Origin: Chloroflexota bacterium
GTDB lineage: Bacteria; Chloroflexota; Dehalococcoidia; Bin125
Direction: 5' to 3'
NCBI GenBank assembly: GCA_026705025.1
Contig: JAPPBN010000046.1
Coordinates: 74,060 to 138,059, forward strand
Length of the DNA: 64,000 bases
Below are positions 820 through 37,390 of the stretch, piece by piece; position 1 is the stretch's first letter; each line of letters starts with the position of its first letter. Both the position numbers and the translations under genes were made by a program. The notes under the pieces were generated by a model that saw only the letters and a list, made by a program, of their open reading frames with translations, was not told where the DNA came from and searched no databases.

Positions 820-858
820 TCTGAGTCGACAGCACTCGATGGTCGGAGAGAATCCCCT

Positions 859-2367
859 ATGACCACCTCCCGCGCGTTTGGCAAGACGCCCGCGCCCGAC
901 GTTCCAGCTGGGATGACCTGGCTAAACACCGGACGCGAAATGTCGATGGGCGACTTCAACGGCCGCCTGCTGATCCTGCACTTCTGGACCTACGCTTGAA
1001 TCAACTGTCTGCACGTGCTTCCGCAGTTGCGGAAGCTTGAACGCCGCTACGCCGACACGCTGCAGATCGTCTCGGTCCATTCGCCCAAGTTCCCGACCGA
1101 GCGCGAGACCGAAAATCTGCGCCAGGCGATCCTGCGTCTGCGAATTGAGCACCCGGTGCTCAATGACGCCGATTTCAAGTATTGGCAGACCTTCGGCGCG
1201 CGGGCCTGGCCGACGCTCTACTTCATCGACCCACGCGGCAATGTGATCGGCATTCACGAGGGCGAGCTGACGGAAGACATGGCTGCCCCCCTAATCGAAG
1301 GTTGGCTGGTCGAGTACGAAGCCGAACAGATTCTGACGCGTAAAGACCTCGGACTGGTCCGCGAAACCGGCCGGGACAGCGCCCTCTCCTTCCCCGGTAA
1401 GGTCGCCTGGGACGACGCCTCTGGACGGCTGGTCGTCTCCGACAGCAACAACGACCGGATCATCGTGGCCGACATCGAGGGCAACGTGTCTCAGATGATC
1501 GGCGGCTCGGAAGCGGGCTTCACGGACGGTTCGGCCTCAGAGGCTCGGTTCAATCAGCCTCAGGGCGTCGAGGTATTCGGCGACCACGTCTTCGTCGCCG
1601 ACAACGAGAACCACGCCCTGCGCCGGATCGATCTGCGCGACGGCAGTGTCACCACGATTGCCGGCACCGGTGAGCAGGCGCGGATGATGCCCTCGGGCGA
1701 GCCCGCGACCCGAACGGCGCTCAGTTCTCCCTGGGATGTGGCCGTCCACGAGGGAGACCTGTACATCGCAATGGCCGGCATCCACCAAATTTGGCGGATG
1801 CCGCTCGGCGATCAGGTCGGCGACGCCTCCTATATCGGTCCCTGGGGAGGCTCGGGTCGCGAGGGAATCGTCGACGGGCCGCGAATGCAGTCGGAGCTGG
1901 CCCAGGTATCCGGTCTGGCGCCCGGACCTTCCGGTCTTGCCTTCGCCGATTCCGAATCAAGCGGCGTGCGAGAGATCAGCTGGGATCCTGACGGCCGAAC
2001 GACGACCTTCATCGGCAAGACCGGCCAGGGCGGACTCTTCCATTTCGGCGACGCCGACGGCGGTCGCTCGGTGGCGAGGCTGCAGCATCCGCTCGATGTG
2101 GCCCGCGTGGGCGATGAGCTCTACGTGGCGGACACGTTCAACCACAAGATCAAGCAAGTGTTCCCACTGACCGAGAACGTCAACACGCTCGTCGGCGGGC
2201 ACGGAGCCGCACTAGGCAGCTTCAGCGAGTTGGAACTCGACGAGCCCGGCGGATTGACCACCGGTCCCGGCCGCTCCCTGCTGGTAGCCGACACCAACAA
2301 CCACCGGATCGTGCACCTGGACCTGGAATCCCGCCAGGGCAGGGAGATCGTGCTGAAGTTTCCCTAA
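859..2367 (+). CDS. Thioredoxin-fold (TlpA/ResA-like) + NHL-repeat protein, NHLRC2 homolog; in-frame TGA at 997..999 proposed to encode selenocysteine (UxxC redox motif)
   Basis: ATG 859 with GGAGAG 10 nt upstream. Frame 859 is continuous with ORF 1015..2367 except for one TGA (997-999). Translation reads ...GRLLILHFWTYA-U-INCLHVLPQL...HSPKFP...NDADFKYW...WPTLYFIDPRGN..., i.e. TGA replaces the first Cys of the CxxC motif. Downstream are NHL-repeat blocks (FPGKV..., FNQPQGV..VADNENH, SSPWDV...IAMAGIHQIW, VADSESS, LQHPLDV, YVADTFNHKIK, LLVADTNNHRIV). Confidence 0.7.
1017..1036 (+). promoter_or_regulatory. Candidate bacterial SECIS hairpin (GCUUCCGC-AGUU-GCGGAAGC) 18 nt downstream of the in-frame UGA
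   Basis: Perfect 8-bp stem with 4-nt apical loop containing G-U; loop starts 25 nt after the UGA, within the range of known bacterial SECIS elements. Confidence 0.5.
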
Positions 2368-4440: not shown

Positions 4441-5574
4441 TCAATCGAACGGATTGAGCTCTTCATGCAAGATCGCCAGGTAGTTTCGGTACACAAACAA
4501 CCGGTTTCGCCGTCTTCCTGTGATCTCCTCAACGATGCCGAGTTCGGCGAGATGCTGGACTGCGGATGAAGCGGTCGACAGTGATAATTGCGCTTGAGCG
4601 CCGACAGAGGCGATAGATCGCAGCGGACGCTGCATGAACTCGTGATGCGCACGAAGAGCCGAGCCGGCCTTTCTTCCGGATTCCTCGATCTGACGCCGAT
4701 CCGTCGCGAAGCATTCATTGAGCCGCTTGGCAGTTTTCACGCCATGGCGAGCTGTCTGTACCACGCCCTCGAGAAAGAACGAGAGCCAGGTCTCCCAATC
4801 GCCGTCGCTTCTGGTTCGATTCAGCAGTTCGTAGTACTCAGAACGGAACTGCTTGAGATACAGACTCAGATAGAGAATCGGCTCAGAGAGCATGCCGGAT
4901 TGCATCAGAATGAACGGAATCAGCATTCTCCCGACACGTCCATTGCCATCGAGGAATGGATGGATTGTCTCGAATTGGGCATGAGCGAGACCGGCGCGAA
5001 CGATCGCAGGCAGGCCGTCCTCCCTGGTATGAATGAATTGCTCCAGGCTTGCCATGCAATCTTCGACTTCCTGGTGCGGAGGCGGAACATAGACCGCGGC
5101 CGAAGGACGCCTTCCGCCTATCCAGTTCTGAGATCTGCGGAACTGACCCGGCTGCTTTTCGGCACCTCGGCCACTGTTGAGCAGCAATCGATGAAGTTCA
5201 CGGATCAGGCGATTGCTCAACGGAAACTGGTCGGCACGCATGCGTTCCAGACCATGGTTCAGCGCAGCGACGTAGTTCGACACTTCTTCGACGTCGTCTG
5301 TTGGCGCTCCTGGAGCCCCTTCGAGTTCGTATTCGAGTAAGTCGGATAGCGATGATTGAGTTCCCTCGATCTCAGAGGAGAGCTGTGCCTCACGCCGAAC
5401 GTAGGAGTAGATGAACAGGTCGGGATCAGGTAGGTGTGTAGTAATCGCATCGAGTGATCCGAGCGCCGCGGAGGCTTGCTCGATGGACTGAGAGAGATCT
5501 GTCAAGTCCAGACTGGGCACAGGAGGCATGGGTGAGGGGACAAACGCACGGACGGTCTCGTCCCCGTAGTTCAT
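4441..5574 (-). CDS. Fic family protein (class II: Fic_N with inhibitory SxxxEG motif, FIC motif HPFLDGNGRVGR, C-terminal wHTH)
   Basis: Canonical HxFx(D/E)GNGRxxR motif; SSEIEG inhibitory helix motif N-terminal to it; likely start MNYGDE at 5574. Confidence 0.8.
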   Translation of the reverse strand: MNYGDETVRAFVPSPMPPVPSLDLTDLSQSIEQASAALGSLDAITTHLPDPDLFIYSYVRREAQLSSEIEGTQSSLSDLLEYELEGAPGAPTDDVEEVSNYVAALNHGLERMRADQFPLSNRLIRELHRLLLNSGRGAEKQPGQFRRSQNWIGGRRPSAAVYVPPPHQEVEDCMASLEQFIHTREDGLPAIVRAGLAHAQFETIHPFLDGNGRVGRMLIPFILMQSGMLSEPILYLSLYLKQFRSEYYELLNRTRSDGDWETWLSFFLEGVVQTARHGVKTAKRLNECFATDRRQIEESGRKAGSALRAHHEFMQRPLRSIASVGAQAQLSLSTASSAVQHLAELGIVEEITGRRRNRLFVYRNYLAILHEELNPFD

Positions 5575-5692
5575 CGTCTCAAATCGTCCCGTTCGCTCGC
5601 GTCTCACTTTGTTCTCCGGGTCTGTGTTCAGATCTGTGGGCCTGGACCCGTTCTCTTTGTTACGACTTTGGGCACGAAATCAGGATACGCGC

Positions 5693-11899: not shown

Positions 11900-12934
11900 T
11901 CACTGTTCGCAGACGAGTCCGTCGCCGTCTCCATCTCGAGCTGAGGGCACCGTTTGTCTGGGGAACCCCTGGCCGGTTCCCTTCGAGCCCTGCTGTCGTT
12001 CAACGCCCGCTGCCTCGGCCTCGTCGCAGGAGGCGTAGGGACCAGATGGCTGCTCTGCGGCGTCCGGGCGCTGTTGATCGTTCTGCTCGCGCTGGACGTG
12101 GATCACGGTCGGCTGTCGCTCCGGGTACTCGGCCCGGCGCTGGTAGCTGGCGGGGCAGGTCTGGAGCATGTCACGTAGAGCGACGACCTCTTGCCGGTCG
12201 GCGGTGAGCGACCACTTGACCTTGACGGCGATCCAGTCGTGCGCGTACTGGCACCAGGCGCTCCTGAGCGGAGGCTTCCAGTCGGCGGGATCGTCAGCTC
12301 GCTTGGTTCGGTTGCTTGAGGCTGAGACTGCCGTGAGCGCTGCGGGGAGATCGAGGTCGTTGGCGAAGGCCGACTTGCGCTCGGCCGGCCAGGCGGCGGC
12401 ACCGGAGTCGTGCGCTTCAGCGAGCGGGACCATGTGGTCGATGTCCAGTAGTGAAGGGTCGTCGAACGGATCGTCGTCGTACCAGGAATGCCAGAGGCCG
12501 TCCAACGGACGACAGTCCTGGTTGACCTCAGTGATGGTGATTGCTTCGGCGATCAGCACGAGTTCGCGGACGTTACAGGCCGGTCGATCGGTCTCCAGCC
12601 ATCCGTCGGGCATGTACAGCTCGCGGTCGTAGTTGATCCCTGAATCCGATTCAGGAGCCACCGTGAGCTGGGCGAGCAACGCTTCGTACCGATCCTGTGG
12701 CTCCTGTCGTGGCTCCGATTGAGGTTGGGCGTCAGGTTGCTCCGGAACGGTCTGCTGGACGGGCTGCGCTTCGCCTACGCCCTGCTGCGGCTCGGGCGCG
12801 GCTGTCTGGCCAGCGGACTGATCGGACTGACTCTGCGGTTCGATCGCGCAGGCCGACAGCGCGAGGCCGGTGAGCAGGAAGCAGACGGCGAGCGCACGGA
12901 CGATTCGGAGCCTCATGGTGTTCTTCAGCAGCAT
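11900..12934 (-). CDS. Secreted lipoprotein with DUF1524 (HNH/GmrSD-C-like nuclease) domain and C-terminal Excalibur calcium-binding domain
   Basis: Signal peptide plus lipobox (LTGLALSAC). [16 protein letters not shown]...W...NDLDLPAA...NRTK matches the DUF1524 His-Me finger. C-terminal CDEAEAAGV...[10 protein letters not shown] is an Excalibur motif. Confidence 0.65.
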
Positions 12935-13019
12935 GCCTCGGGTTTGGGAAGACGAACCATAGCAGCGAGCGGACGTCGTATCCCTCTATCCTGATTCGGA
13001 AGCCGAGAGGACGAGTGTC

Positions 13020-14156
13020 ATGGTCAGCGAGATTGTCTACTCCTGCGATTCCCACGTGGTTGAGGGTCCGGAGGTCTTTGACGGATTGGTAGAAAAATTC
13101 GGCGATCGCGCGCCGCGCGTGGTCGACGGCTGGAAGGGCCGCCAGGGGGTGTACCTGGCCTGGCCGCAGATTGACTTCGCCATGCTGGTCGGTCGCCTGG
13201 GGATCGCCGGGGCGAACCTGAACCTGCCCGAAACCAAGGAGAAGATGCAACGCGGCTGGGACCTAATCAATCCCGGGGTCAAGGATCCGGTTGCTCGGCT
13301 GACGGAGCAGGACACCGACGGCGTGGTCGGCGAGGTGATGTATCCGTCGATCAACATGCTGACCTACATGGTCGATGACGTGGAGGTGGTGAACGCCGTC
13401 TTCCAGCGTCACAACGACTGGATCCGCGACTACTGCTCGCACAGCCCCGAGCGGCTGATCGGCGTCGGTTGTCTGACGCTGCGCGACGTTGAGGTCGGGA
13501 TCGCCGAGCTTGAGCGCTGCGCCAACATGGGGATCAAGGGCGTGGCGATTCCCTGTACCGCGCCCAAGGACAAGCCGTACTCGGACGCCTACTACGAGCC
13601 GTTCTGGACGGCGGCCGAGGAAGCCGGACTGCCGCTGACGATGCACATTTTCTGCGGCGCGGAGCCGGGGATGGGATTGCCCAAGGAGTGGGACGAGGTC
13701 GTGAGCTACACGCTGGCGCATTCGGCCGCCTGGAACACGATCTCCAACCTCGTTACCTCAGGGGTTTGCGAGCGGCACCCAGGTCTGAAGTTCGTGATGG
13801 CCGAGTGGGAGACGGGCTGGATCGCGCACACGCTGGAGCGCTGGGACCACGCCTACTACCGCGCCCGCGCGGTCGACCGGACGCCCGAGTTGGAGATGCT
13901 GCCTTCGGAATACTTCCACCGCAACTTCATGGTCACGTTTGAGGACGACGAGATCGGCGTGCAAACGCGCGACCGCATTGGCGTGGACAACCTGCTCTGG
14001 GGCAACGACTATCCGCATCACGACGCGATCTGGCCGAACTCGCGCCGGATCCTGGACGAGATCATGGAAGGCGTCCCGCAAGAGGACGTCGACAAGATGG
14101 TCTGGGGCAACGTGCAGAAGTTGTACAACATCGACGTGAAGGCGCTGCCCGTGTAG
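13020..14156 (+). CDS. Amidohydrolase-2 family protein (ACMSD-like metal-dependent hydrolase)
   Basis: SCDSHV N-terminal metal ligands and WGNDYPHHD near the C-terminus are typical of PF04909. Confidence 0.75.
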   Translation: MVSEIVYSCDSHVVEGPEVFDGLVEKFGDRAPRVVDGWKGRQGVYLAWPQIDFAMLVGRLGIAGANLNLPETKEKMQRGWDLINPGVKDPVARLTEQDTDGVVGEVMYPSINMLTYMVDDVEVVNAVFQRHNDWIRDYCSHSPERLIGVGCLTLRDVEVGIAELERCANMGIKGVAIPCTAPKDKPYSDAYYEPFWTAAEEAGLPLTMHIFCGAEPGMGLPKEWDEVVSYTLAHSAAWNTISNLVTSGVCERHPGLKFVMAEWETGWIAHTLERWDHAYYRARAVDRTPELEMLPSEYFHRNFMVTFEDDEIGVQTRDRIGVDNLLWGNDYPHHDAIWPNSRRILDEIMEGVPQEDVDKMVWGNVQKLYNIDVKALPV

Positions 14157-14166
14157 GGACATGCTC

Positions 14167-14197
14167 TTGTTATCGGATTGACAGTATCCGATAACAA
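14167..14197. promoter_or_regulatory. Perfect 12-bp inverted repeat TTGTTATCGGAT-N7-ATCCGATAACAA (operator-like / hairpin)
   Basis: Read directly. It lies 11 nt after the stop of the 13020..14156 gene and 100 nt upstream of the Fic gene at 14300. Confidence 0.5.
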
Positions 14198-14237
14198 ACT
14201 GACAGTTGGGCCAATTCGAGCTCTCTCCGACTTTCGA

Positions 14238-14280
14238 ATCGGATTACTATCGGATCAAGAGTTTCCGATAGTAATCCGAT
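14238..14280. promoter_or_regulatory. Perfect 17-bp inverted repeat ATCGGATTACTATCGGA-N9-TCCGATAGTAATCCGAT (operator-like), shares ATCGGA core with the 14167 palindrome
   Basis: Read directly; it lies 20 nt upstream of the Fic start at 14300. Confidence 0.55.
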
Positions 14281-14299
14281 AGCTCGTTTCGAGGGAACA

Positions 14300-15637
14300 A
14301 TGGCACTTCCGGATGTCGCTCCGCCGTTCAGCGCTTTGCAGGTCGACTTCGAGGTGCTCAGTTTCGAGGAACGGGCCCAGTTTCAGGGGACGCTCACCCC
14401 GGTCGACGCACAGGGTCGCTACCTACCGTGGGACGAAGTCCGCTATCGAAAGGCGCCGAACGGGCTGACGCGCCGGCAATGGTGGCTGAGCCTGGCGACC
14501 GCCCGCCGAGCAGCCCGGAACGAACTGCCCCTACTTGGACGCGGTGGCCAAGCCTTCTGGTTCTGCGAAACCGGCCCGCTTCCCGGATTCCTCAAGCGTT
14601 GGGATGCGGCGGTCTCTTCGCATAACGTCCATCGCGATCTGGGCCTACAGGATGCCGAGCGGAACCAGCTTCGGGTTAGTTCGCAGATGTATGAGTCGAT
14701 TCAATCCAGTCGCCTTGAGGGAGCGAACACGACACGAGAGGTCGCACTGGAGATGCTGAGGGACGGACGACGCCCGCGGGACTACGGCGAGCGCATGATC
14801 GCCAACAACTATGCCGCGATGGAGTTGATCAGCAAATGGACAACTGAACAGGAACCGTTCGACATCGATCACATCCTCGAGGTCCACCGTGTCGTGACCG
14901 ACGGCACCCTTCGAGCCGACGATGTTGGGCGCTTGCAGAATCCAGGGGACCCGCGCGTGTATGTGGTCAGCCGCGGTGGGGAGATCGTCCATACGCCGCC
15001 TCCGGCTTCCGAATTGCCGGAGCGGATGCAGCGGCTCTGCGACTTCGAGAATCAACTGCCTGAGGCAAGCGACCTGCACCACCTGCTGAAGGCGATTCTT
15101 GTGCATTTCATGATCGGCTACGACCATCCGTTTGCCGACGGCAACGGACGTACCGCTCGTGCGCTGTTCTACTGGTCGCTGCTTCGTTCTGGAATCTGGC
15201 TTTCCCAATACCTGCCGATTTCGGAGTTCCTCCTCGCGGCGCCGGGGCAATACTCGCGGGCGTACCAATTCGTTCATGCCGACGGCAACGACGTGACTCA
15301 CTTCTTGCTGCACCAGCTTGATGTCGTCGAGCGATCAGTTGAACGGCTCGACAGCCACGTGCGAGGCATCCGCTCCTGGATGGAGGACGCGAGAGAGGCC
15401 ACTGGCCTTGAGTCGGGACTGAACCAGCGCCAATCCGACCTGCTGGCGGAACTGCTGAACGATCCGACGCGATACATCACTATCGCCCGCTACCGGCGGA
15501 CGAATGATGTGAGCTATGCCGTCTCTCACGGAGATCTGGCCGATTTGGTGAAACGAGGGCTGTTAGAACGGGAGCGGGTCGGCAGACGGCTTCAGTTTCG
15601 AGCCGCGCCGGGCTTCCAGGAGAGATTGGGCGGGTAG
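14300..15637 (+). CDS. Fic family protein (class II: SSRLEG inhibitory motif, FIC motif HPFADGNGRTAR, C-terminal wHTH)
   Basis: Canonical FIC motif with an upstream SxxxEG motif; ~150-aa N-terminal extension; C-terminal RYRRTNDVSYAVSHGDLADLVKRGLL resembles a winged helix. Confidence 0.8.
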   Translation: MALPDVAPPFSALQVDFEVLSFEERAQFQGTLTPVDAQGRYLPWDEVRYRKAPNGLTRRQWWLSLATARRAARNELPLLGRGGQAFWFCETGPLPGFLKRWDAAVSSHNVHRDLGLQDAERNQLRVSSQMYESIQSSRLEGANTTREVALEMLRDGRRPRDYGERMIANNYAAMELISKWTTEQEPFDIDHILEVHRVVTDGTLRADDVGRLQNPGDPRVYVVSRGGEIVHTPPPASELPERMQRLCDFENQLPEASDLHHLLKAILVHFMIGYDHPFADGNGRTARALFYWSLLRSGIWLSQYLPISEFLLAAPGQYSRAYQFVHADGNDVTHFLLHQLDVVERSVERLDSHVRGIRSWMEDAREATGLESGLNQRQSDLLAELLNDPTRYITIARYRRTNDVSYAVSHGDLADLVKRGLLERERVGRRLQFRAAPGFQERLGG

Positions 15638-15661
15638 TCTGCAGGGGTACAGGAGTGAGCG

Positions 15662-16576
15662 ATGGCGTCGCGTCGTGAGCAAGCTGGACTACCCAAAGGC
15701 GCCGAAATGCGTGCGCTGGTGCTCGACTGCCTCAGACACATGGTTAATCCTGTGAATCGGAAGCAGATCGGCGACGCGGTTGCGCAACGGCTCGGTTTGT
15801 CACCAGAGCAACTGGCGGTGCGAGAACCTGCGAGCGGAGGCGGCGATAGCTCTCGTCCATTCGTTGATTGGTGGTGCGAGTGGGCGTGTAACGACCTCAA
15901 GCACATTGGTGTCACGGAACAACCCGGGCGTGGCCTGTATCAGCTGACCCAAGAGGGCAGGGCTATCTCGCTCAATGACGTTGAGCAGCGGAATCGCGAA
16001 CGCCATCGACGCTATCGAGAACAACGCCAACGGACCCGCCGAGCCAAAGTCCAGGAACCGAGCGACGCGATAGACAGCGACGACTCAGAAGTCGCAGGTG
16101 ATTGGCAAAGCCAACTTCTCGACCGGCTCATGAACGCTTCGCCTACAGCGTTCGAACATCTTGCCGGCGCCCTGCTGCAAGCAGCGGGTTTCGACGACGT
16201 AGAAGTTACGGGTCGGGGTGGCGATGGTGGAATTGACGGCATTGGAACGTACCGACCCTCAGGCTTGATTTCGTTTCACACAGCGTTTCAGTGCAAGCGA
16301 TACAAAGGGTCCGTGGGGTCGTCCACAGTCCGAGACTTCCGAGGATCGTTCATCGGGCGCTCAGACCGCGGAATCATCATTACAACGGGATCCTTCACGC
16401 GTGACGCTAGGGACGAAGCTGCCAGACCGGGCGCAAATCCCGTTGACCTGATTGATGGCGAAGCGCTCTGCGAACTGCTCAAGGAGCATTCCTTGGGTGT
16501 TCGCACGACGCTACGAACTGTTGAAGATGTCGCCATTGACGACTCCTACTTCGACCAATTCGAGGACTCCCGATGA
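15662..16576 (+). CDS. mrr: Mrr-like restriction system protein (Mrr_N winged helix + Mrr_cat nuclease domain)
   Basis: The N-terminus matches the E. coli Mrr N-terminal domain (LxxL...PxxRKQIxDAV...LGLS); the core has TGRGGDGGIDGIG...FQCKRY (PD-(D/E)xK Mrr_cat). An alternative start is at 15707. Confidence 0.75.
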   Translation: MASRREQAGLPKGAEMRALVLDCLRHMVNPVNRKQIGDAVAQRLGLSPEQLAVREPASGGGDSSRPFVDWWCEWACNDLKHIGVTEQPGRGLYQLTQEGRAISLNDVEQRNRERHRRYREQRQRTRRAKVQEPSDAIDSDDSEVAGDWQSQLLDRLMNASPTAFEHLAGALLQAAGFDDVEVTGRGGDGGIDGIGTYRPSGLISFHTAFQCKRYKGSVGSSTVRDFRGSFIGRSDRGIIITTGSFTRDARDEAARPGANPVDLIDGEALCELLKEHSLGVRTTLRTVEDVAIDDSYFDQFEDSR

Positions 16577-17340
16577 GCAACATGCGATCTGTCCTGGTTG
16601 ATGTTCTGGTTGCGTTGCTGATCATGATCTTTGGCGGGATCATCTTTGCCCGGCTTGCGGGGGTGGAGGAGGGGGAGACGGCTCCGGATTGGGCTCAGTT
16701 TGCTCCGCTGGTTCTGGCGATGATTTATCTGGGCTGGCGGACGCTTCGGCGCAGCCGACAGCGGCGCGAAGCCGAAGCCCGGATGGAGGAATCCGCCCCG
16801 GAGCGCGATGGTTGGGGCGATGAGGGCCGCGCGGACGTTCCGCCGATGGACGACTACGAGTGGCGTTCGCGGTTGGAGTCTTCGATACGCAACCTGGGGC
16901 GCGACGCATTTGAGCAGTTCACGATTCGGATCCTCAGCGCGCTGGCGGTGGTGGACGTCAAGGTCGAACGGATTGCCTTCGACGGGGCCGTCGAGAGTCT
17001 TGGCGTCCATGACGACGAGGAGCGGGCGAGCGTATACGCCATCTTCCGCCGCTCGTTTGGCTCGCTGGGAGCGAATCAGATTCGGGATCTTCGGGCGTCG
17101 ATGGAGGGCAAGGCGGCTGAGGGTCTGTTCGTCTCGAATGGCGAGTTTTCTTCGTCGGCCATCGACGAAGCGGACGGTGGGGAACCACCGATTGAGCTGG
17201 TCGACGGGGACGACTTGCTGGACCTGATGTACACGAATCGGCTGGGCTTGATTTTCGACGAGATCGGACGCGTCACAGGAGTCGACGATGAGTGGTTCCG
17301 CGGTCTCGCCCGCGACGAACGAGTCCGGGACGGAGACTGA
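16573..17340 (+). CDS. Membrane-anchored restriction-endonuclease-domain (Mrr_cat-like) protein
   Basis: Two N-terminal TM helices, then a region resembling the PF04471 restriction endonuclease fold (AIFRR...LFVSNGEFSSSAIDEA...IELVDGDDLLDLM). The start overlaps the mrr stop by 4 nt. Confidence 0.5.
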   Translation: MSNMRSVLVDVLVALLIMIFGGIIFARLAGVEEGETAPDWAQFAPLVLAMIYLGWRTLRRSRQRREAEARMEESAPERDGWGDEGRADVPPMDDYEWRSRLESSIRNLGRDAFEQFTIRILSALAVVDVKVERIAFDGAVESLGVHDDEERASVYAIFRRSFGSLGANQIRDLRASMEGKAAEGLFVSNGEFSSSAIDEADGGEPPIELVDGDDLLDLMYTNRLGLIFDEIGRVTGVDDEWFRGLARDERVRDGD

Positions 17341-17342
17341 GG

Positions 17343-18458
17343 ATGAGCACTTCAGCTGACGCGCAACCGACGGTCGGCGTGCTGCCGGGGGACGACGCGG
17401 CGCCCGAGGCGGTGCATGCCTCGCTGGCGGTGCTGCAGGCGATGGAGTTGCCGATCGCGTTCGAGGTCCTGCCCGACGGCGCGGAGATGGCTCGGGAGAT
17501 GTCGCGCGAAGAGGGCGAGCAGCTGGTGATCGACACTGCCGAGCGCTGCGACACGGTGCTGTTCGGCTCGACCAATGGCCAGACGCCGGGCGTCGGCTAT
17601 TTCCGCTGGGGGCGCCAAACATACGCGAACGTGCGGCCGATCAAGTGGCGGCCCGGCTTCCGCTCGCCGATGGCCCGGCCGGAGGGCATCAACTACGTCA
17701 TCGTGCGCGAGAACCTGGAGGACCTGTACGCCGGAATTGAGGGTGATCTGTCGGAGGTCGCCGCTTCGGGTCTGGCCGACCGTCCGCGGTTCGGCGGCGT
17801 CTCGCGCACCCAGATTCCAGGGGGATTCGGCCACTTTGCCGAGGCCGACGGACGCTATGCGATCAAGTACTTCACCCGTGCCAACGTCGAGCGCGTGGCG
17901 CATTTCGCCTGCCGGCTGACGCAACAGCGCAAGGCGGAGGGGTTTGAGGGCAAGCTGACCTGCTCGGCCAAGTACAACGTGTTGTCGCGGACCGACGGCT
18001 GGTTCGTCGAGATCGCGGCCGAGGTCGCGTCGGGCTATCCCGATATCACCTTTGAGTCCTTCATCGCCGACGATTTCGCCCGTCGGATCGTGGCCTCGCC
18101 GCACGATCTTGATGTGGTGCTGCTGCCCAATCTGTACGGCGACATCTTCTCGGACGAGGGCGCGGGCACGATCGGCGGCCTGGGACTGGCGCCGTCGGGT
18201 TGTTTCGGGGAGGACTGGGCCTACTTCGAGTCGGTCCACGGGACCGCGCCGGACATCGCCGGGATGCACCAGATCAATCCGACGGCGACGATGCTCTCGG
18301 CCGTGATGATGCTGCACCATCTCGGTCAGCACGAGCGGGCGTCGGCGTTGGAGTCGGCGATTGACGCGGTCTACGAGGCCGGGGAGCGGCTGACGCCGGA
18401 CCAGGGCGGTTCGGCAAGCACCGAGGAGTTCGCGCAGGCTGTGATCGACGCGCTGTAG
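17343..18458 (+). CDS. Isocitrate/isopropylmalate dehydrogenase family protein (tartrate/3-isopropylmalate dehydrogenase-like)
   Basis: NLYGDIFSDEGAGTIGGLGLAPSG and YESVHGTAPDIAG motifs; probable start ATG 17343 (MSTSADAQPTVGVLPGDD). Confidence 0.8.
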   Translation: MSTSADAQPTVGVLPGDDAAPEAVHASLAVLQAMELPIAFEVLPDGAEMAREMSREEGEQLVIDTAERCDTVLFGSTNGQTPGVGYFRWGRQTYANVRPIKWRPGFRSPMARPEGINYVIVRENLEDLYAGIEGDLSEVAASGLADRPRFGGVSRTQIPGGFGHFAEADGRYAIKYFTRANVERVAHFACRLTQQRKAEGFEGKLTCSAKYNVLSRTDGWFVEIAAEVASGYPDITFESFIADDFARRIVASPHDLDVVLLPNLYGDIFSDEGAGTIGGLGLAPSGCFGEDWAYFESVHGTAPDIAGMHQINPTATMLSAVMMLHHLGQHERASALESAIDAVYEAGERLTPDQGGSASTEEFAQAVIDAL

Positions 18459-18476
18459 GTCAACTCTTGGTTGTCG

Positions 18477-18574
18477 TGGCGGGAGCGCATGGGAGTCGAA
18501 CCCACCCGAGACGGTGCGGACCGCCCCGCATCAGTTTTGAAGACTGTGGAAGACACCGGTCCCCTTCCGCTCCC
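18477..18574 (-). tRNA. selC: tRNA-Sec (selC), anticodon UCA
   Basis: The reverse complement gives GGGAGCGGAAGGGGACCGGUGUCUUCCACAGUCUUCAAAACUGAUGCGGGGCGGUCCGCACCGUCUCGGGUGGGUUCGACUCCCAUGCGCUCCCGCCA (98 nt). It has a 7/8-bp acceptor stem, a 6-bp D-stem with a 4-nt D-loop, the anticodon loop CUUCAAA (UCA), a long variable arm, a T-loop UUCGACU identical to E. coli selC, discriminator G and an encoded CCA. Confidence 0.8.
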
Positions 18575-18596: not shown

Positions 18597-19286
18597 CTAG
18601 CCCACGTAGAGGTCGATTGAGGCGGGGGCGATGGTGGACTCGAGGGCGGTGCGGAACTCGGCCCAGCGATCGTCGTAGTTGGAGCGGCGGAAGTTGGCGT
18701 GCAGGCTGGCGGTTCCGGCGTTCTGGGTGGATGAAGCGATCTTGAAGCCGCGCAGGTTAGTCCGTAGGAAGCTCAATAACTCTGCCTCGTGTTGGGTGTA
18801 GTCGGCCGAGGGCATGGTGATGATCAGGTCTCGGCTGCCCGCGGTCAGGCCTCTGAGGCCGGTCGAGCCGAAGATGCGCTGGCCGACCAGGACCAGTGCG
18901 ACGGCGGCGAAGAGGATGCCGATCAGCTCGTAGTTGTAGGTCGCGGCGCCGATTGACGAGGCGATGACCACCAGGAGGTAGCCGATTTCCGCCGGGTCCT
19001 TGATCGGCGTGCGGAAGCGGACAAACGAGAGCGCGCCGAGCAGGCCGAGCGAGAGCGGCAGCGACCATTGGATGGCGATGAAGAGCAGCGTGATCGCTGG
19101 TCCGGCGAGCAGGAAGACTCGGTGGATGCCGGCCCCGCGCTGCCAGTCGCGATAGAAGATGAGATAGAGCACATAGATCGCGATCGACGCGGCCAGCGAG
19201 ACGACCATCGCGAGCAGGTACTCCTCGAGCGCGATTTCCGAGGTCGGGCCGAGAATGTCGGGCCACTCGATCATGACAATGGGCAT
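18597..19286 (-). CDS. DUF4956 domain membrane protein
   Basis: Four N-terminal TM helices plus a C-terminal soluble region; sits in the typical position next to a VTC-domain gene. Confidence 0.55.
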   Translation of the reverse strand: MPIVMIEWPDILGPTSEIALEEYLLAMVVSLAASIAIYVLYLIFYRDWQRGAGIHRVFLLAGPAITLLFIAIQWSLPLSLGLLGALSFVRFRTPIKDPAEIGYLLVVIASSIGAATYNYELIGILFAAVALVLVGQRIFGSTGLRGLTAGSRDLIITMPSADYTQHEAELLSFLRTNLRGFKIASSTQNAGTASLHANFRRSNYDDRWAEFRTALESTIAPASIDLYVG

Positions 19287-19322: not shown

Positions 19323-20057
19323 TCAGCCGGCGCGGGCGGATTCGCCGCCGTAGAGCGTCTCGACGGCGAGCGCGTACTTCGAGTGGGCGGTGCGGCGGAG
19401 GCCGAGGCGTCCGAGGTGGGCAAGTTGCGTCGGCAGATCGCCGGTTGACTTGAGTTCGAGGACAGAGCCATTGGGAACGGGCAACCAGACCGGGGCTCCT
19501 CGCGGGTTTGACGTGCGGACGTCGGTGTCCAGTGATGCGCGGACTGAACCATCGGCGGATTGCCAGCGAATTCGTTGGTAGCGAATCAGGGCGGTGGGTA
19601 TGACTGTCGGCTCGAGGGGCAACGTGGCGACGCCGGTCAGGTCACGAAGGCGTCGTACGAGCTCGTCGCGCTCGGGGATGATCAGCCCGAGCTGATTGGG
19701 CACTCCGGTCGAGGGATAGCGAACGCGCTGCTTGGTTGAGCGAGCGCCGTCGCGCGACTTGAGTTCGAGCCAGACGCCGGCGTACGGGTCGACGGGATCG
19801 CCATACCAGCGCAGGCGCAGCTTCTGTTTGGCGAACTCGCCGTCGGCCGATTCCTGGTAGGAGTCGAGCTCGGGCGTGTCGTAGTAGCAGCTGGTAATGA
19901 CGCCGAGCGGATACTGGGAGTCGCGGGGCAGGCGGGCGTCGAGCCAGGCGGTCAACAGCGCGGCGCGGGCTGCCGGCAGCGGATACTTGCGTTCCTCCCG
20001 CGAATCCGCTTTCGTTATCTGGTTCCGAGTGTCCGGGCGACGTAAGGTGAGCGCCAT
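19323..20057 (-). CDS. VTC-domain (polyphosphate polymerase / CYTH-like domain) protein
   Basis: 244 aa with conserved basic/acidic blocks (RLRWYG...WLELKSR...LELKSTG) typical of bacterial VTC-domain proteins found adjacent to DUF4956 and CotH genes. Confidence 0.6.
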   Translation of the reverse strand: MALTLRRPDTRNQITKADSREERKYPLPAARAALLTAWLDARLPRDSQYPLGVITSCYYDTPELDSYQESADGEFAKQKLRLRWYGDPVDPYAGVWLELKSRDGARSTKQRVRYPSTGVPNQLGLIIPERDELVRRLRDLTGVATLPLEPTVIPTALIRYQRIRWQSADGSVRASLDTDVRTSNPRGAPVWLPVPNGSVLELKSTGDLPTQLAHLGRLGLRRTAHSKYALAVETLYGGESARAG

Positions 20058-20108: not shown

Positions 20109-21509
20109 ATGAACAAGCGGTCGGCGCTGGCGCTTGTCCTGGCGGTCGCGGTGATCGTTGCCGGCGTGGTCATTGCGACCACCGGTGACGCCTCGGCTCC
20201 GCGGGTGCCGTCGAGGGCGGCGGAGACCACGATTGGCGTCGATCAACAGCGCAGCGATCCGTTCAACATCGTCTTTGACCTGAACACGGTTCGGGTCTAC
20301 GACATCCAGCTCGGCGAAGCCGAGCAGGCCAAGCTGGACGCCAACCCGACCGCTGAGCAGTACGTCGAGGGCGCGGTGGTCATCGACGGCAAGCGCTACG
20401 GGCCGATCGGCGTGCGGTACAAGGGTTTCTTCGGGGTGCTGCGGCAGTGCTTCTTCACCGGCGTGAACACCTGCGACAAGCTGGCCTGGAAGCTGAAGTT
20501 CAACCACTATGAGCCGTCGCTGCGCTATCACGGTCTGAAGCGGCTCAACTTCCACCAGATGAACAGCGACGAAGCGCAGATGCGCGAGGTGTTGACCTAC
20601 CAGGTCTTCCGCGACGCCGGCGTGCCTGCGCCGCGCTCGGTCTTCGCGCTATTGCGCCTCAACGGCGAGCCGCTGGGCTTCTACACGCTGACGGAGGATA
20701 TCGACGATCGCTTCATTGCCGATCGTTTCCGCGACGGTGGGCGCGGCGTGCTCTACAAGGAGATCTGGCCGGGCAACATCGAGCGGCTGCCGGCCTTCAG
20801 CGAGACCATCGAGGGGGCGATCGCGCGCGGCCCCGAGGATCCGTCGGGCCTGCGCGAGTTCTCGGCAGCGCTGACCGAAGCGGAGCAGTCGGATGATTCA
20901 GCCGCGAGGGTATTCGTCGTGCTGGAGGACTACATCCAGGATCTGGATGCGCTCTACGGCTACTTGGCAGCGGATCGGCTGACCGACAACTGGGACGGGA
21001 TCGTGGCCTGGTACTGCGTGCCGGTCTGCGGCAATCACAACTTTTTCTGGTACGAGGATGCGCTTTCTGGTGAGTTCAGCCTGATTCCCTGGGACGTTGA
21101 GAACAGCTGGCGCTCGCCCAGCCCGATCCGGACGTACTACGAGATGCCCGACTGGGATGAAACGGAACGCAGTTGCCGGTTGCGCAAGGTGTTCTGGGAC
21201 ATCGATGCGCGAGCGCCTCACTGCAACCCCGTGATCCACGCGCTGGCGACGCAGGGCTGGGAACGATACATCGAGGCGTCGCGCGAGCTGATGGAACACG
21301 TTGTCACGCTGGACGAGATGCACGCCAGGGTCGATGCGATCACCGAACTGATTGAGCCGCACGTGCTGGCCGACGAGAACGGTCCAGGCGAGATCCAGTG
21401 GCGAGCGGCGGTGCGGCTGCTGCATGACGAGATCGACGACCGCTGGCGGTACATTGCCGACAAGATTGCGGCCTGGGACGCGACGGGAGAGGTTCCGGGA
21501 GATGGCTGA
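20109..21509 (+). CDS. CotH kinase family protein (secreted)
   Basis: N-terminal signal/TM; the size and motif spacing of spore-coat-protein-H-like atypical kinases; conserved VTC-DUF4956-CotH neighbourhood. Confidence 0.6.
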   Translation: MNKRSALALVLAVAVIVAGVVIATTGDASAPRVPSRAAETTIGVDQQRSDPFNIVFDLNTVRVYDIQLGEAEQAKLDANPTAEQYVEGAVVIDGKRYGPIGVRYKGFFGVLRQCFFTGVNTCDKLAWKLKFNHYEPSLRYHGLKRLNFHQMNSDEAQMREVLTYQVFRDAGVPAPRSVFALLRLNGEPLGFYTLTEDIDDRFIADRFRDGGRGVLYKEIWPGNIERLPAFSETIEGAIARGPEDPSGLREFSAALTEAEQSDDSAARVFVVLEDYIQDLDALYGYLAADRLTDNWDGIVAWYCVPVCGNHNFFWYEDALSGEFSLIPWDVENSWRSPSPIRTYYEMPDWDETERSCRLRKVFWDIDARAPHCNPVIHALATQGWERYIEASRELMEHVVTLDEMHARVDAITELIEPHVLADENGPGEIQWRAAVRLLHDEIDDRWRYIADKIAAWDATGEVPGDG

Positions 21510-26455: not shown

Positions 26456-27529
26456 GTGAGCACCTCGGCCTCCGGATCGCCGATCCGGGCAGCGATCATC
26501 AATGTGACGGGTTACGTCGGAGCGGAGTTGGCGCGTCTGCTGGCGCAACACCCGCGTGTGGAGATCGTCTGTGTGACCGGCCGTTCCGAGGTGGGTAAGC
26601 GTTTGCCCGAGGTGTTTCCGCACCTCTGGTCGCTCGATCTGCCGATCGTCGCGGAGGTCGACGATGACATCGATGTGATTTTCTCCGGCCTGCCCCACGC
26701 AGCTGCGGCCGAGCGACTCACCCCGTTCATTGAGGGCGGCACACCCGTGATCGACGCTTCGGCCGATTTCCGTCTCTACGACGAGGAGACCTACGAGCAG
26801 TGGTATGGCGAACACCCGTCGCCGCACCTGCTGCCGGAGTCGGTGTATGGCCTGCCGGAGCTGCACCGCGATGCGATCGCGGAATCACGACTGGTCGGCG
26901 TGCCGGGCTGTTACCCCACCTCCGCCATCCTCGCGCTGGCTCCGCTCGCGGCGAAGGGTTGGCTGGATGGCCGCACCGTCGTCGATGCCAAGTCGGGCGT
27001 TTCCGGCGCGGGTCGCGCGCTGAAGATTACCTCTCACTTCTCTGAAGTTGATTCCAACTTCTCTGCCTACGGGCTGAGCGGTCATCGGCACCAGCCAGAG
27101 ATGGTTCAGGAACTCTCGACACTGCAGGACGGCGCCGACAGCGATTCCGATCTGAGCGTCACCTTCGTGCCGCACCTCGTACCGATGACGAGAGGGATCC
27201 TGGCCACCTGCTACCCCTCTATTGCTGACGGAAGCCTACCTCCGAACTCAGAAGAGCGAGTAGAAGCATTGCGCGACGTCTACGAGTCCTACTACGAGGA
27301 CGAGCCGTTTGTGCATGTCGCGCCGAATGCGCCCTCGACCAAGCAGACGCTGGGTTCGAATGCCTGCATCGTCTATCCCACTGTCGACCCGATGACCGGA
27401 GAGGTGATGGTGATCAGTGCGATCGACAACCTGGTCAAGGGCACTGCCGGCGCTGCCGTGCAGTGCTTCAACCTGATGTTCGGTTTGCCGGAAGAGCTTG
27501 GGCTGAGCAAGATCGGCGTGTATCCATGA
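26456..27529 (+). CDS. argC: N-acetyl-gamma-glutamyl-phosphate reductase
   Basis: NVTGYVGAELARLL NAD-binding N-terminus and GCYPT active-site Cys region. Confidence 0.85.
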   Translation: MSTSASGSPIRAAIINVTGYVGAELARLLAQHPRVEIVCVTGRSEVGKRLPEVFPHLWSLDLPIVAEVDDDIDVIFSGLPHAAAAERLTPFIEGGTPVIDASADFRLYDEETYEQWYGEHPSPHLLPESVYGLPELHRDAIAESRLVGVPGCYPTSAILALAPLAAKGWLDGRTVVDAKSGVSGAGRALKITSHFSEVDSNFSAYGLSGHRHQPEMVQELSTLQDGADSDSDLSVTFVPHLVPMTRGILATCYPSIADGSLPPNSEERVEALRDVYESYYEDEPFVHVAPNAPSTKQTLGSNACIVYPTVDPMTGEVMVISAIDNLVKGTAGAAVQCFNLMFGLPEELGLSKIGVYP

Positions 27530-28743
27530 CCGGCAATCACGATGCGCTGGCCGCGAATCCCGACGCCGAAGGGGCTCTCACCAGAGCGCAGGGATTCTCG
27601 GCCTGCGGATTCACAGCCGGGATCAAGGAGTCGGGTCTGCCCGATCTGGCCTTGATGGTCTCGGACCGCCCGGCGACGGCGGCGGCTGTCTACACCCAGA
27701 ACCAGAGCACGGCCGCGCCCGTACACGTCAGCAAGGCGCATACGGCGAACGGATCGTTGCGAGCCGTCGTGGTCAACTCGGGCAACGCCAACTGCGCGAC
27801 CGGTGAGCAAGGACTCGCCGATGCCCGCGAGATGACACGACTGACGGCTTCATTGATCGGCTGCGAAGCCGAGGAGGTGTTCGTCAACTCCACCGGGATC
27901 ATCGGGCACTACCTGCCCATGGACCTGTTGCGCTCTGCGATTCCTCAACTCGCGCCGGCGTCCGACGGTGGCGCCGATTTTGCCCAGTCGATCATGACCA
28001 CCGACACCTTCCAGAAGGAAGCCGTTGCGACGTTCGAAGCCAACGGCGTGAGCTACACCGTTGGCGGCTGCGCCAAGGGCGCGGGCATGATTCATCCCGA
28101 CATGGCAACGATGCTGGCCTTCTTCACCACGGATGCGCCGGTTGCTGCCGGCGCTCTGGAGTCTTGCTTCCGCTCCGCCATGGATCGATCATTCAACATG
28201 GTCACGGTTGATGGGGATACGTCGACGAACGATTCATCCGTGATCCTCGCCAACGGGGCTGCCGGCGGCGAACCGCTCTCCAGGGCCTCGCTCGAAGCGT
28301 TTGGCTCCGCCTTGCTGGATGTGTCGACGGCGTTGGCCAAGATGATGGCCCGCGATGGCGAGGGGGCGACCAAGCGGATTTCGATCACAGTCTCGGGTGC
28401 GATGTCCTGGGAGGACGCGCGCGATGTGGCGCGCACGATCGCGGTGTCGCCGCTGCTGAAGGCCGCCTTGAGCAAGTACGACCCGAACTGGGGCCGGATC
28501 CTGATGGCCGCCGGCCGCGCGGGCGTGCCGTACGACCTCGATCAGGTCAGCATTTGGATTTCCGACCTGTGCGTCTTCGACGGCACGGCCACCGGCGTGC
28601 CCGAAGCAGAGGCCTCGGAGAAGACGCAGGGCGAAGAAGTGTTCCTGAGGATGGACCTCGGGCAGGGCGACGCTGCGGCCACCGCCTGGGGCTGCGATCT
28701 GACCGAGGAGTACGTCCGCTTCAACGCCGACTACGTGACGTAG
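27526..28743 (+). CDS. argJ: Bifunctional glutamate N-acetyltransferase / amino-acid acetyltransferase
   Basis: The ATMLAFFTTDA self-cleavage site (T of ATML) and overall ArgJ motifs; the start overlaps the argC stop (ATGA). Confidence 0.85.
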   Translation: MTGNHDALAANPDAEGALTRAQGFSACGFTAGIKESGLPDLALMVSDRPATAAAVYTQNQSTAAPVHVSKAHTANGSLRAVVVNSGNANCATGEQGLADAREMTRLTASLIGCEAEEVFVNSTGIIGHYLPMDLLRSAIPQLAPASDGGADFAQSIMTTDTFQKEAVATFEANGVSYTVGGCAKGAGMIHPDMATMLAFFTTDAPVAAGALESCFRSAMDRSFNMVTVDGDTSTNDSSVILANGAAGGEPLSRASLEAFGSALLDVSTALAKMMARDGEGATKRISITVSGAMSWEDARDVARTIAVSPLLKAALSKYDPNWGRILMAAGRAGVPYDLDQVSIWISDLCVFDGTATGVPEAEASEKTQGEEVFLRMDLGQGDAAATAWGCDLTEEYVRFNADYVT

Positions 28744-28764
28744 CGGATTTCCTATCGTGGACAC

Positions 28765-29133
28765 GTGGAGGATCTGATGACGTCGCGACACGTTTGGCGA
28801 CCGCCGGGTCAGGAGCCGTCAAAGCTCCCGCCCGTGCGAATCGGCGAGGCTTGGTACGACGCCGACACTTGCGCGGAGATCCAACGGCTGATCGACGAAC
28901 ACGACGCTCGCGACGATGGTCTCACGGAAGACCGGATGATGATGCTCGAGTACGGACAGACGCCGCACGAGCTCCTGGATTCGACCGGACTCACCAATGA
29001 GGAGATCCTCGAGCAGTTCGGCGCGGAGCGGGATGAATTGGCAGCATCACTAGGCATGCCAAGCCGGGAAGAGCTGATTATCTTCAAGCACCTGCGCGCG
29101 GAGAAGCATGCCCTTCAGAGTCAGCTGGACTGA
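28765..29133 (+). CDS. Putative antitoxin-like small protein (hypothetical)
   Basis: A small acidic ORF whose 3' end overlaps the following RelE/ParE-like toxin ORF by 26 nt; no confident domain recognised. Confidence 0.35.
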   Translation: MEDLMTSRHVWRPPGQEPSKLPPVRIGEAWYDADTCAEIQRLIDEHDARDDGLTEDRMMMLEYGQTPHELLDSTGLTNEEILEQFGAERDELAASLGMPSREELIIFKHLRAEKHALQSQLD

Positions 29134-29362
29134 ACCCGCCAACCTGCAGTTCAACGGCCTGACGGAACCCTTTGGCATCGTCTGGACTCGCCAAATGGTC
29201 GGAAGCTTCCAACACGATAGGTGGGTGCGCGGTCGGATCATCTCAGATCCCACGGCGACGGGCGTTGACCTCCGCGAGCTTGAGAACGGCCCGATTCGGC
29301 TCAGGTACGAGCTCCTGATGGACGACGAATCAGTCAGAATCACGTCGGTTCGAATCACCTGA
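29108..29362 (+). CDS. RelE/ParE family toxin (type II toxin-antitoxin system)
   Basis: 84 aa; the C-terminal IRLRYELLMDDESVRITSVRIT matches the RelE/ParE beta-strand pattern (YRLxYxVDDxxxxVxVLRIGHR-like). Confidence 0.5.
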   Translation: MPFRVSWTEPANLQFNGLTEPFGIVWTRQMVGSFQHDRWVRGRIISDPTATGVDLRELENGPIRLRYELLMDDESVRITSVRIT

Positions 29363-29377
29363 GCATCTACCTGACGC

Positions 29378-30448: not shown

Positions 30449-30492
30449 CTCCGGCGGCGTCCGTGAGGCAGGTGTCGGCTAGGCTGGCATCC

Positions 30493-34289: not shown

Positions 34290-34375
34290 GCCGCTCAAGC
34301 GCCACCAACTGCATAGACGCGCACTGAGCGCTCGCGTAGTCTGAATCGGTTGAATGTCCCGTCTGCGTAGCCGGA

Positions 34376-35569: not shown

Positions 35570-35706
35570 GCCCGAACGGAACCGAACAGGATCGAACGCC
35601 AGCGAACGAGATCGACCCGACGCGAATACTCCACGTCCGTCAACGGTCGCTCAGAATCGAACGCGATCGAACAAGATCGAACAGATCCGAACAAATCGAA
35701 CACAGT
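35570..35706. repeat. Array of ~10 CGAAC-containing repeats at 9-10-bp spacing, ending in 4 tandem (A/G)ATCGAACA decamers, immediately upstream of argG
   Basis: Read directly: ccgaacgg, ccgaacagg, atcgaacgcc, gcgaacgag, atcgaccc, aatcgaacgc, gatcgaacaa, gatcgaacag, atccgaacaa, aatcgaacac. Confidence 0.6.
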
Positions 35707-35719
35707 TGGGAGCACTGGG

Positions 35720-36973: not shown

Positions 36974-37020
36974 CACCCGGCAGGTTCGCCTGACGATTCG
37001 GCCAGACAGGAGAGCGTGCG

Positions 37021-37380: not shown

Positions 37381-37390
37381 CAGGCGGCGC

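Follow-up and report, generated by a model that had tools for sequence, protein, structure and literature searches.

Mammals require NHLRC2, and mutations in it are found in FINCA disease, although its biochemical function is not known. NHLRC2 and its Arabidopsis relative SOQ1 (structures 6GC1 and 7DJJ, respectively) share a thioredoxin (Trx)-like domain, a six-bladed NHL β-propeller and a C-terminal β-stranded domain with a Cys pair. The CCINC motif of NHLRC2 (residues 89–93) occupies the CxxC position at the N-terminus of helix α1, beside a conserved cis-proline, and the Trx-like cysteines of SOQ1 have been reported to be redox-active. We analysed a stretch of 64,000 nucleotides (nt) from a Chloroflexota bacterium of the Dehalococcoidia (contig JAPPBN010000046.1, positions 74,060 to 138,059; hereafter, the window), in which a gene at 859–2367 has in common with SOQ1 and NHLRC2 the core of Trx-like domain and six-bladed propeller, an x-[C/U]-I-N-C motif at the same position and the cis-proline of a WPT motif. 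Unlike these two proteins, its product would carry selenocysteine (Sec), specified by an in-frame UGA, in place of the attacking Cys of CxxC, and has Ala in place of the extra first Cys of CCINC. We consider it highly probable that 859–2367 is one gene encoding a selenoprotein, with the UGA read as Sec by the ordinary bacterial mechanism.

A single reading frame interrupted by UGA

Direct translation placed ATG 859, TGA 997–999 and TAA 2365–2367 in one frame, interrupted by this TGA only, as a sequence-only reading of the window had claimed; the translation around the codon is ...GRLLILHFWTYA*INCLHVLPQLRKLERRY.... The same reading had described an upstream open reading frame (ORF) of 47 codons, which is indeed there, although it comprises 46 sense codons and reaches 47 only when the UGA is counted. 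The read-through product has 502 residues and comprises the Trx-like domain and the NHL β-propeller. Elsewhere in the window TGA is an ordinary stop and no other gene is interrupted by it; a scan of the window for TGA-joined ORF pairs, as further selenoprotein genes, gave only adjoining genes and off-frame artefacts.

Public annotation holds only part of this gene. The ORF list of the window has only a 450-aa ORF from GTG 1015, a codon at the foot of the hairpin described below, and GenBank entries for the window gene likewise contain the truncated ORF only, in agreement with the expectation that automated pipelines would shorten the gene at its N-terminus. The identical 450-aa product (1015–2364) was found on 12 contigs and is deposited as MCY3572106.1, MCY3589582.1, MCY3685871.1 and MDE2709639.1, under the name "alkyl hydroperoxide reductase". 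We rejected the peroxiredoxin/AhpC identity implied by this name: the PxxxTxxC motif is missing, L-H-F-W-T-Y-A-U having Leu at the Pro position, no peroxiredoxin model was among the NCBIfam matches, and the Pfam AhpC-TSA match (33.7 bits) was weaker than that to Thioredoxin_8.

The best 82 homologue clusters, from 98% down to approximately 56% identity, are mostly from Chloroflexi/Dehalococcoidia metagenome-assembled genomes (MAGs), and several bear the same "alkyl hydroperoxide reductase" name. All of them are 440–460 aa long and cover about 89% of the query, indicating that all are cut at the same point; full-length coverage returned only below approximately 50% identity. We fetched the DNA of 80 loci from species-representative genomes and translated it upstream of each match. 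Two loci (L046 and L056) lacked the N-terminus at a contig end. TGA was present at the same codon in 58 loci, all from Chloroflexota/Dehalococcoidia and with 43–97% identity to the protein encoded in the window, giving 59 TGA sequences with the window itself, and in these loci the in-frame peptide ahead of the TGA was conserved (M-TTSRAFG-TPAP-VP-GMTWLN-GRE-S---F-GRLLILHFWTYA). The remaining 20 loci, from Anaerolineae, Gemmataceae, Acidimicrobiia and others, had TGC or TGT at this codon, within the motifs YGCINC or FCCINC. The search for Cys orthologues that had been proposed as a check on Sec/Cys pairing thus set 59 TGA sequences against 20 with a Cys codon.

In the 40 codons 5' of the TGA, the minor-allele fraction was 0.135 for first, 0.092 for second and 0.299 for third codon positions, and close relatives showed 9–13 synonymous versus 4–12 non-synonymous codon differences in this upstream segment. 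Because variation sits mostly at third positions, we conclude that the segment is translated in this frame. The locus has features by which selenoprotein genes are recognized, namely a conserved UGA codon with a third-position-biased coding pattern on both flanks, and a Sec/Cys pair.

These comparisons bear on whether the locus might give two products, a short ORF (859–999) and an NHL protein from GTG 1015, or be a pseudogene with a nonsense mutation. GTG 1015 is a legal start, and gene callers and GenBank annotate exactly the 450-aa product; however, a nonsense codon would not persist in 58 species-level genomes, down to 43% identity, with both flanks under purifying selection. Moreover, the upstream 46 codons encode the first Trx strand and the active-site motif, with a residue-by-residue alignment to SOQ1, a product from 1015 would begin inside the first helix, past the CxxC motif, and distant homologues have Cys at exactly the codon in question. 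We thus find both versions highly improbable, and retain the reading of 859–2367 as one gene.

A SECIS-type hairpin and the proposed decoding of the UGA

Downstream of the UGA lies a hairpin with arms GCTTCCGC (1017–1024) and GCGGAAGC (1029–1036) around an AGTT loop (1025–1028). The distance from the UGA is 17 nt to the start of the hairpin and 25 nt to that of its loop. The outermost G-C pair is unpaired in 18 of 47 distinct sequences and is poorly kept, indicating that the real stem is of 7 bp. The sequence-only reading had been right about the hairpin, its sequence and its AGUU loop, and was in error on the distance, given as 18 nt; the functional stem is the 7-bp one.

Its proposal that shape and position fit a bacterial selenocysteine insertion sequence (SECIS) agrees with the published model for these elements (bSECIS; PMC13188914), which specifies a loop of 3–9 nt having G within its first two positions and usually G or U after it, a stem of 4–16 bp, a UGA-to-loop distance of 16–37 nt and a minimum free energy (MFE) of −7.5 kcal/mol or lower. 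The hairpin fits on all four counts, with the loop AGUU (G and U at positions 2 and 3), a stem of 7–8 bp, a spacing of 25 nt and an MFE no higher than −10.5 kcal/mol. Across the 59 TGA sequences, the 33-nt region had MFE values from −10.5 to −18.5 kcal/mol (mean −13.7), with the same fold throughout. The same region in the 20 Cys sequences had a mean of −5.5 kcal/mol and no common fold, and the hairpin was missing.

A 12-base core, CCGCAGTTGCGG, was invariant in 59 of 59 TGA sequences, including the third positions of CCG, CAG, TTG and CGG, and the SECIS core CCGCAGUUGCGG was likewise invariant even at synonymous sites. Third positions of codons 8–12 past the UGA had minor-allele fractions of 0, 0, 0, 0 and 0.02, as compared with a mean of 0.225 for the 40 codons past the UGA. 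Changes in the outer stem kept the pairing, as CTC...GAG (L044 and L045), CTG...CAG (L050), CTG...CGG (L032) or TTT...AAA (L077), and five further loci (L034, L037, L040, L042 and L061) had U-G wobbles there. Pairs 22–39 and 24–37 showed compensatory changes and pair 23–38 went from U-A to U-G. In several cases a silent change of a Leu codon was matched by replacement of Lys with Glu, Gln or Arg on the opposite arm, which is the opposite of what would be expected under protein constraint alone. Overall, 93.4% of cells were paired, against 32–64% in slid controls, double changes occurred in three of the eight pairs, none of 500 shuffles reached the observed covariation, and RNAalifold independently returned the same 7-bp helix; covariation in orthologues, which had been named beforehand as a check on the hairpin, is hence present. 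On this comparative evidence, the hairpin is under selection at the RNA level.

The hairpin could alternatively be a by-product of the conserved peptide LPQLRKL, devoid of RNA function, with Sec insertion, if any, depending on another signal. Its stem does lie within a conserved protein segment, and its stability is unremarkable at this GC content. Nevertheless, the invariant third positions of CCG CAG TTG CGG are four-fold or two-fold sites whose neighbouring third positions vary freely, and the Leu codon CTT changes to CTC, CTG or TTT together with a change of AAG to GAG, CAG or AAA that restores pairing. Additionally, the Cys-type homologues encode the similar peptide IPDLKRLE without any hairpin. 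We regard a by-product as improbable in the extreme; the SECIS-type hairpin appears instead as a clean case of such an element constraining the coding sequence, with LPQLRK fixed in Sec forms and IPDLKR in Cys forms.

The window also contains a gene for tRNA-Sec (selC), as had been noted from its sequence; both ARAGORN and the Rfam model identified it (Table 1). We attempted to follow this gene in relatives through its neighbours, but the look-up with the isocitrate/isopropylmalate dehydrogenase-like gene gave no record, probably because the called start differs, and that with the DUF4956 gene returned the same strain only. Dehalococcoidia MAGs with up to 46–49 selenoprotein genes are reported in BSepDB (PMC13326102).

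Read-through could in principle insert a standard amino acid, with the UGA read as Cys, Trp or Gly by near-cognate decoding, by reassignment or by Cys-tRNA(Sec) under selenium scarcity, and the hairpin only stimulating read-through. In favour of this alternative, selA and selD were not located in the window or the fetched loci. Against it stand the high-scoring tRNA-Sec gene, the fit of the hairpin to the SelB-type SECIS model in both loop sequence and spacing, and the location of the recoded codon at a redox-active Cys site, as is usual for Sec/Cys pairs; global reassignment is excluded by the use of TGA as a normal stop in the window. We accord insertion of a standard amino acid a slim chance.

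Decoding as Sec would follow the standard bacterial pathway. The hairpin (1018–1035) would fold in the mRNA as the ribosome nears UGA 997–999, and SelB with GTP and Sec-tRNA(Sec), its tRNA supplied by the gene at 18477–18574, would bind the hairpin and deliver Sec to the A site, upon which translation would continue.

Several observations weigh against a Sec-containing redox enzyme at this locus. Scans of essentially all long ORFs of the 64-kb window with Pfam and NCBIfam did not find selA, selB or selD, nor did motif regular expressions in the fetched homologue loci. The 71-nt hairpin region is no more stable than shuffles of the same composition (64% GC; z = −0.01); since its energy is not significant in this comparison, we set the thermodynamic criterion aside in favour of the comparative evidence. 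Pair 24–37 is mismatched (C-A or G-A) in seven of the 47 distinct sequences and, with the stem core invariant, the covariation comes down to three outer pairs and few independent events. As for activity, an enzymatic role would be read from homology alone. NHLRC2's Trx-like domain was inactive in an insulin reduction assay, which led to the proposal that it does no thiol-disulfide chemistry, although research on SOQ1 supports the contrary view. The methionine sulfoxide reductase activity of SOQ1, in turn, has been ascribed to its C-terminal domain, which the protein encoded in the window lacks.

The Trx–NHL core, its Cys homologues and its genomic surroundings

Profile searches were run with the read-through protein, with Cys substituted for the stop. 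Among solved structures, Arabidopsis SOQ1 matched best, through its lumenal region (7djj; E 7.9e-101 over query residues 10–498), followed by human NHLRC2 (6gc1, E 5.2e-99). SOQ1 FWTYCCINCMHVLPDL aligned over FWTYA[U]INCLHVLPQL of the query, indicating that the UGA corresponds to the second Cys of CCINC, that is, to the canonical first Cys of CxxC. Together with the placement of residues 89–93 in NHLRC2, this alignment bears out the assignment of the UGA to the CCINC site that had been made from the sequence alone. The query motif is A-U-I-N-C, as against C-C-(I/V)-N-C for the NHLRC2/SOQ1 family, with Ala at the first Cys of CCINC, where most bacterial Cys forms have Gly.

The Trx-like domain aligned with those of SOQ1, NHLRC2 and DipZ, and the Pfam domains Thioredoxin_8 and NHL, together with homology to SOQ1 and NHLRC2 over residues 10–498, are as expected for the TlpA/ResA-like fold and the NHLRC2-like NHL protein originally proposed. 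The TlpA, ResA and DipZ reductases belong to the same Trx superfamily (DipZ, whose motif is SCINC, E 1e-18; ResA, E 1e-6), but differ from the query, which has no signal or membrane anchor and has a fused propeller. NCBIfam gave no family-level match, with ResA at 43 bits versus a cut-off of 170, TlpA at 22.6 versus 230 and StoA also far under its cut-off.

As in the NHLRC2/SOQ1 family, a six-bladed NHL propeller is predicted directly after the Trx-like domain. The C-terminal β-stranded domain of that family has no counterpart: the query stops at the end of the SOQ1 propeller, which is residue 507 in the 7djj construct of 667 residues, and is therefore without this domain. It also lacks the HAD domain and the transmembrane segment of SOQ1, and the N-terminal extension of NHLRC2. 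The product is thus not a full NHLRC2 orthologue, lacking both the C-terminal domain and the N-terminal hydrophobic segment of most bacterial Cys forms.

This architecture is common to the Sec forms, which are approximately 495–510 aa long, start about 18 residues ahead of a conserved PAP motif, stop right after the propeller and, where the start is clear, show no N-terminal hydrophobic segment (Kyte-Doolittle maximum ≤ 0.6). Bacterial Cys-type homologues such as L058 (Anaerolineales), L060 (Gemmataceae) and L068 (Acidimicrobiia) are 43–50% identical over the Trx–NHL core, with G/C-C-I-N-C at the codon. Unlike the query, most of those sampled are proteins of 670–710 aa with a hydrophobic N-terminal segment (Kyte-Doolittle maximum 1.7–2.6) and approximately 135 extra C-terminal residues of the SOQ1 type, and the Cys forms lack the hairpin; past the Sec or Cys codon, all Sec forms have approximately 447–467 residues versus approximately 590 in the long Cys forms. 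The extension of L058 aligned to the SOQ1 C-terminal domain (7djj residues 7–638, E 4e-138), and most of the Cys-type loci (L058, L060 and L063–L080) carry such a domain with a conserved Cys pair (...LVYCEAEKQSLC... in L058). These features suggest that the long bacterial Cys forms may be exported three-domain proteins. L065, a Chloroflexota locus of the Cys type, encodes 499 aa and has the short, apparently cytoplasmic architecture of the Sec forms.

In a neighbour-joining tree, 56 TGA sequences (the window and 55 loci with complete genes) formed one clade, and two others, L061 (2983–3042) and L077 (2983–3042), branched deeply. The latter have the motifs G-U-INC and C-U-INC instead of A-U-INC, and their CCGCAGUUGCGG core is identical. 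Since they share with the main clade both the SECIS core and the peptide HV(L/F)PQLR(K/R)LE, a single origin of the Sec forms is suggested. We take these alignments to suggest a single ancient Cys-to-Sec conversion within Chloroflexota, although the deep topology of the tree is unreliable.

Lacking an N-terminal hydrophobic segment and a C-terminal domain, the Sec forms are most likely cytoplasmic and would act directly; without the latter domain, the window protein could not use the relay of electrons from Trx-like to C-terminal domain proposed for SOQ1. By analogy with other thioredoxin folds, Sec-47 would be the attacking residue of U-I-N-C, at the start of the first Trx helix and beside the loop of cis-Pro-118. 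The selenolate would attack an oxidized substrate in the cleft that separates the Trx-like domain from the propeller, candidates being a disulfide, a sulfenate or possibly methionine sulfoxide, and the resulting selenenylsulfide with Cys-50 would then be re-reduced by a cellular reductant. Sec is frequently used in enzymes that reduce methionine sulfoxide or sulfenates. In view of this usage and of the SOQ1 preprint, reduction of methionine sulfoxide or of a sulfenate is a reasonable guess, albeit a speculative one.

Table 1. Coordinates of the proposed selenoprotein gene, its elements and the tRNA-Sec gene in the window
Feature	Position	Strand	Basis
Proposed selenoprotein gene, complete; 502 codons including UGA-47, stop TAA 2365–2367	859..2367	+	Single frame; same start region and frame in 58 relatives
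Putative Shine-Dalgarno sequence GGAGAG, 8 nt 5' of ATG 859	845..850	+	Inferred by reading the sequence
Thioredoxin-like core (Thioredoxin_8/TlpA-like), residues 35–129	961..1245	+	PF13905, E 8.5e-12; PDB alignments extend to approximately residues 10–160
UGA, proposed Sec-47, position one of the U-I-N-C redox motif	997..999	+	TGA here and at 58 loci; Cys codon (TGC/TGT) in 20 more distant homologues; SOQ1 alignment
TGT, Cys-50, proposed resolving Cys of UxxC	1006..1008	+	INC invariant across all Sec and Cys forms
GTG, start of the annotated 450-aa ORF; most likely an internal Val codon	1015..1017	+	ORF list; GenBank product
Bacterial SECIS-type hairpin; 7-bp stem 1018–1024/1029–1035, loop AGUU 1025–1028; outer pair 1017/1036 weakly conserved	1017..1036	+	Folding, conservation, covariation
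CCG, Pro-118 of WPT; candidate for the thioredoxin-fold cis-proline	1210..1212	+	Aligned with WPT of SOQ1; columns W65 and P66 of alignment A1 invariant
NHL-repeat β-propeller, residues approximately 174–498	1378..2352	+	PF01436, E 6.7e-25; 7djm and 6g7w, both propeller-only structures, align here (E approximately 1e-60)
tRNA-Sec (selC), anticodon UCA	18477..18574	-	ARAGORN; Rfam RF01852, 68.2 bits (gathering threshold 47)

A gene for a glucose/sorbosone dehydrogenase (GSDH)-like β-propeller protein (49–819) stops 40 nt ahead of the proposed selenoprotein gene. This placement is kept in 43 Sec-type loci, with GSDH identity down to approximately 50%, but only at loci with at least 68% protein identity, and the gene is missing in the diverged Sec loci L048–L054. 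Being limited to close loci, this arrangement gives no evidence for a functional link, which we rejected; it is likely plain synteny.

The tRNA-Sec gene lies in a gap of approximately 139 nt between a DUF4956 gene and the isocitrate/isopropylmalate dehydrogenase-like gene. Directly beside it are genes for DUF4956 (18597–19286, minus strand), a VTC domain (19323–20057, minus strand) and a CotH kinase-like protein (20109–21509, plus strand). A defence-like run also adjoins it, with two Mrr-type restriction endonuclease genes (15662–16576 and 16573–17340), Fic (14300–15637) and GmrSD_C (11900–12934), the Pfam labels having been taken from the identical locus L081; the run (11900–18574) may have been inserted near the tRNA gene as an island. 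The Fic gene (plus strand) is one of two Fic/DOC-family genes within 10 kb, the other (4441–5607, minus strand) having Fic_N and a weak DUF1612 match. Farther along, an arginine biosynthesis set (26456–38926) comprises an argC-like semialdehyde dehydrogenase, ArgJ, a class-III aminotransferase, argininosuccinate synthase and argininosuccinate lyase, and is interrupted by a minus-strand ORF with a molybdopterin oxidoreductase domain and by a UPF0182 protein of 1006 aa.

A candidate selenoprotein family and its relation to NHLRC2 and SOQ1

The pattern seen most often across the 119 prokaryotic selenoprotein families of a May 2026 inventory is Sec at UxxC within a thioredoxin fold. Catalogued UxxC families include Sec-thioredoxin, peroxiredoxin (Prx)-like thiol:disulfide oxidoreductase, thiol:disulfide interchange protein, the thiol-disulfide isomerase-like family from the Sargasso Sea and the Redoxin family/Prx-like 3 from Global Ocean Sampling (GOS). 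Like these, the window gene has Sec first in UxxC, a SECIS just downstream and numerous Cys homologues. We rejected identity with the Sargasso family, whose motif is DW-U-TWC, and with the GOS family, whose motif is FASY-U-GLC, as compared with WTYAUINC in the query; BLASTP of the Trx domain was not significant for either (best E 0.11, in a comparison from which the current representatives MGB1650493.1 and HEU0032618.1 were left out).

No family of the inventory is described there as being of NHL, NHLRC2 or SOQ1 type, nor any of the UxxC families above as fused to an NHL propeller. The inventory contains neither "NHL" nor "propeller", and "NHL" does not occur in a 2022 selenoprotein review or in the BSepDB, GOS and deep-Sep papers. 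Likewise, our literature search found no paper that in this sense links NHLRC2, SOQ1 or NHL repeats to selenocysteine. The suggestion that no Sec-containing NHLRC2 homologue had been described is therefore upheld, by name, in the selenoprotein catalogues examined. BSepDB was compiled from tblastn searches that used representatives of known families (E ≤ 0.01), and the window gene may therefore sit in it under a generic Trx-fold label. The representative selenoproteins of a 2026 review fall partly in the neighbouring MCY36.../MDE0... accession ranges, which hints, as a lead only, that related MAG submissions hold annotated selenoproteins.

The gene apparently represents a new selenoprotein family with the NHLRC2/SOQ1 core in a Sec form, which is systematically mis-annotated, widespread in Dehalococcoidia and probably undescribed. 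We lean slightly towards a broader claim: that this is the first recognized Sec member of NHLRC2/SOQ1, clade-wide and vertically inherited in Chloroflexota/Dehalococcoidia, that it marks the second Cys of CCINC as catalytic, and that its Trx–NHL core can work without the C-terminal domain. Sec is kept almost only at catalytic redox positions, and for this reason its presence would mark the second Cys of CCINC (Cys-90 of human NHLRC2) as a true nucleophile in catalysis. If the claim is true, it suggests that the Trx–NHL core can act as a redox enzyme without a C-terminal domain.

In at least 58 species-level genomes, and in many further metagenomic clusters, this gene is present as a truncated "alkyl hydroperoxide reductase" without its active site. 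With the gene restored, the prokaryotic selenoproteome would gain a family, in a lineage whose large selenoproteomes have been remarked on before. For the NHLRC2/SOQ1 family itself, the Sec form would be a more reactive natural variant for substrate trapping, and the natural Sec/Cys pair at CxxC would provide independent evolutionary evidence for a catalytic redox centre.

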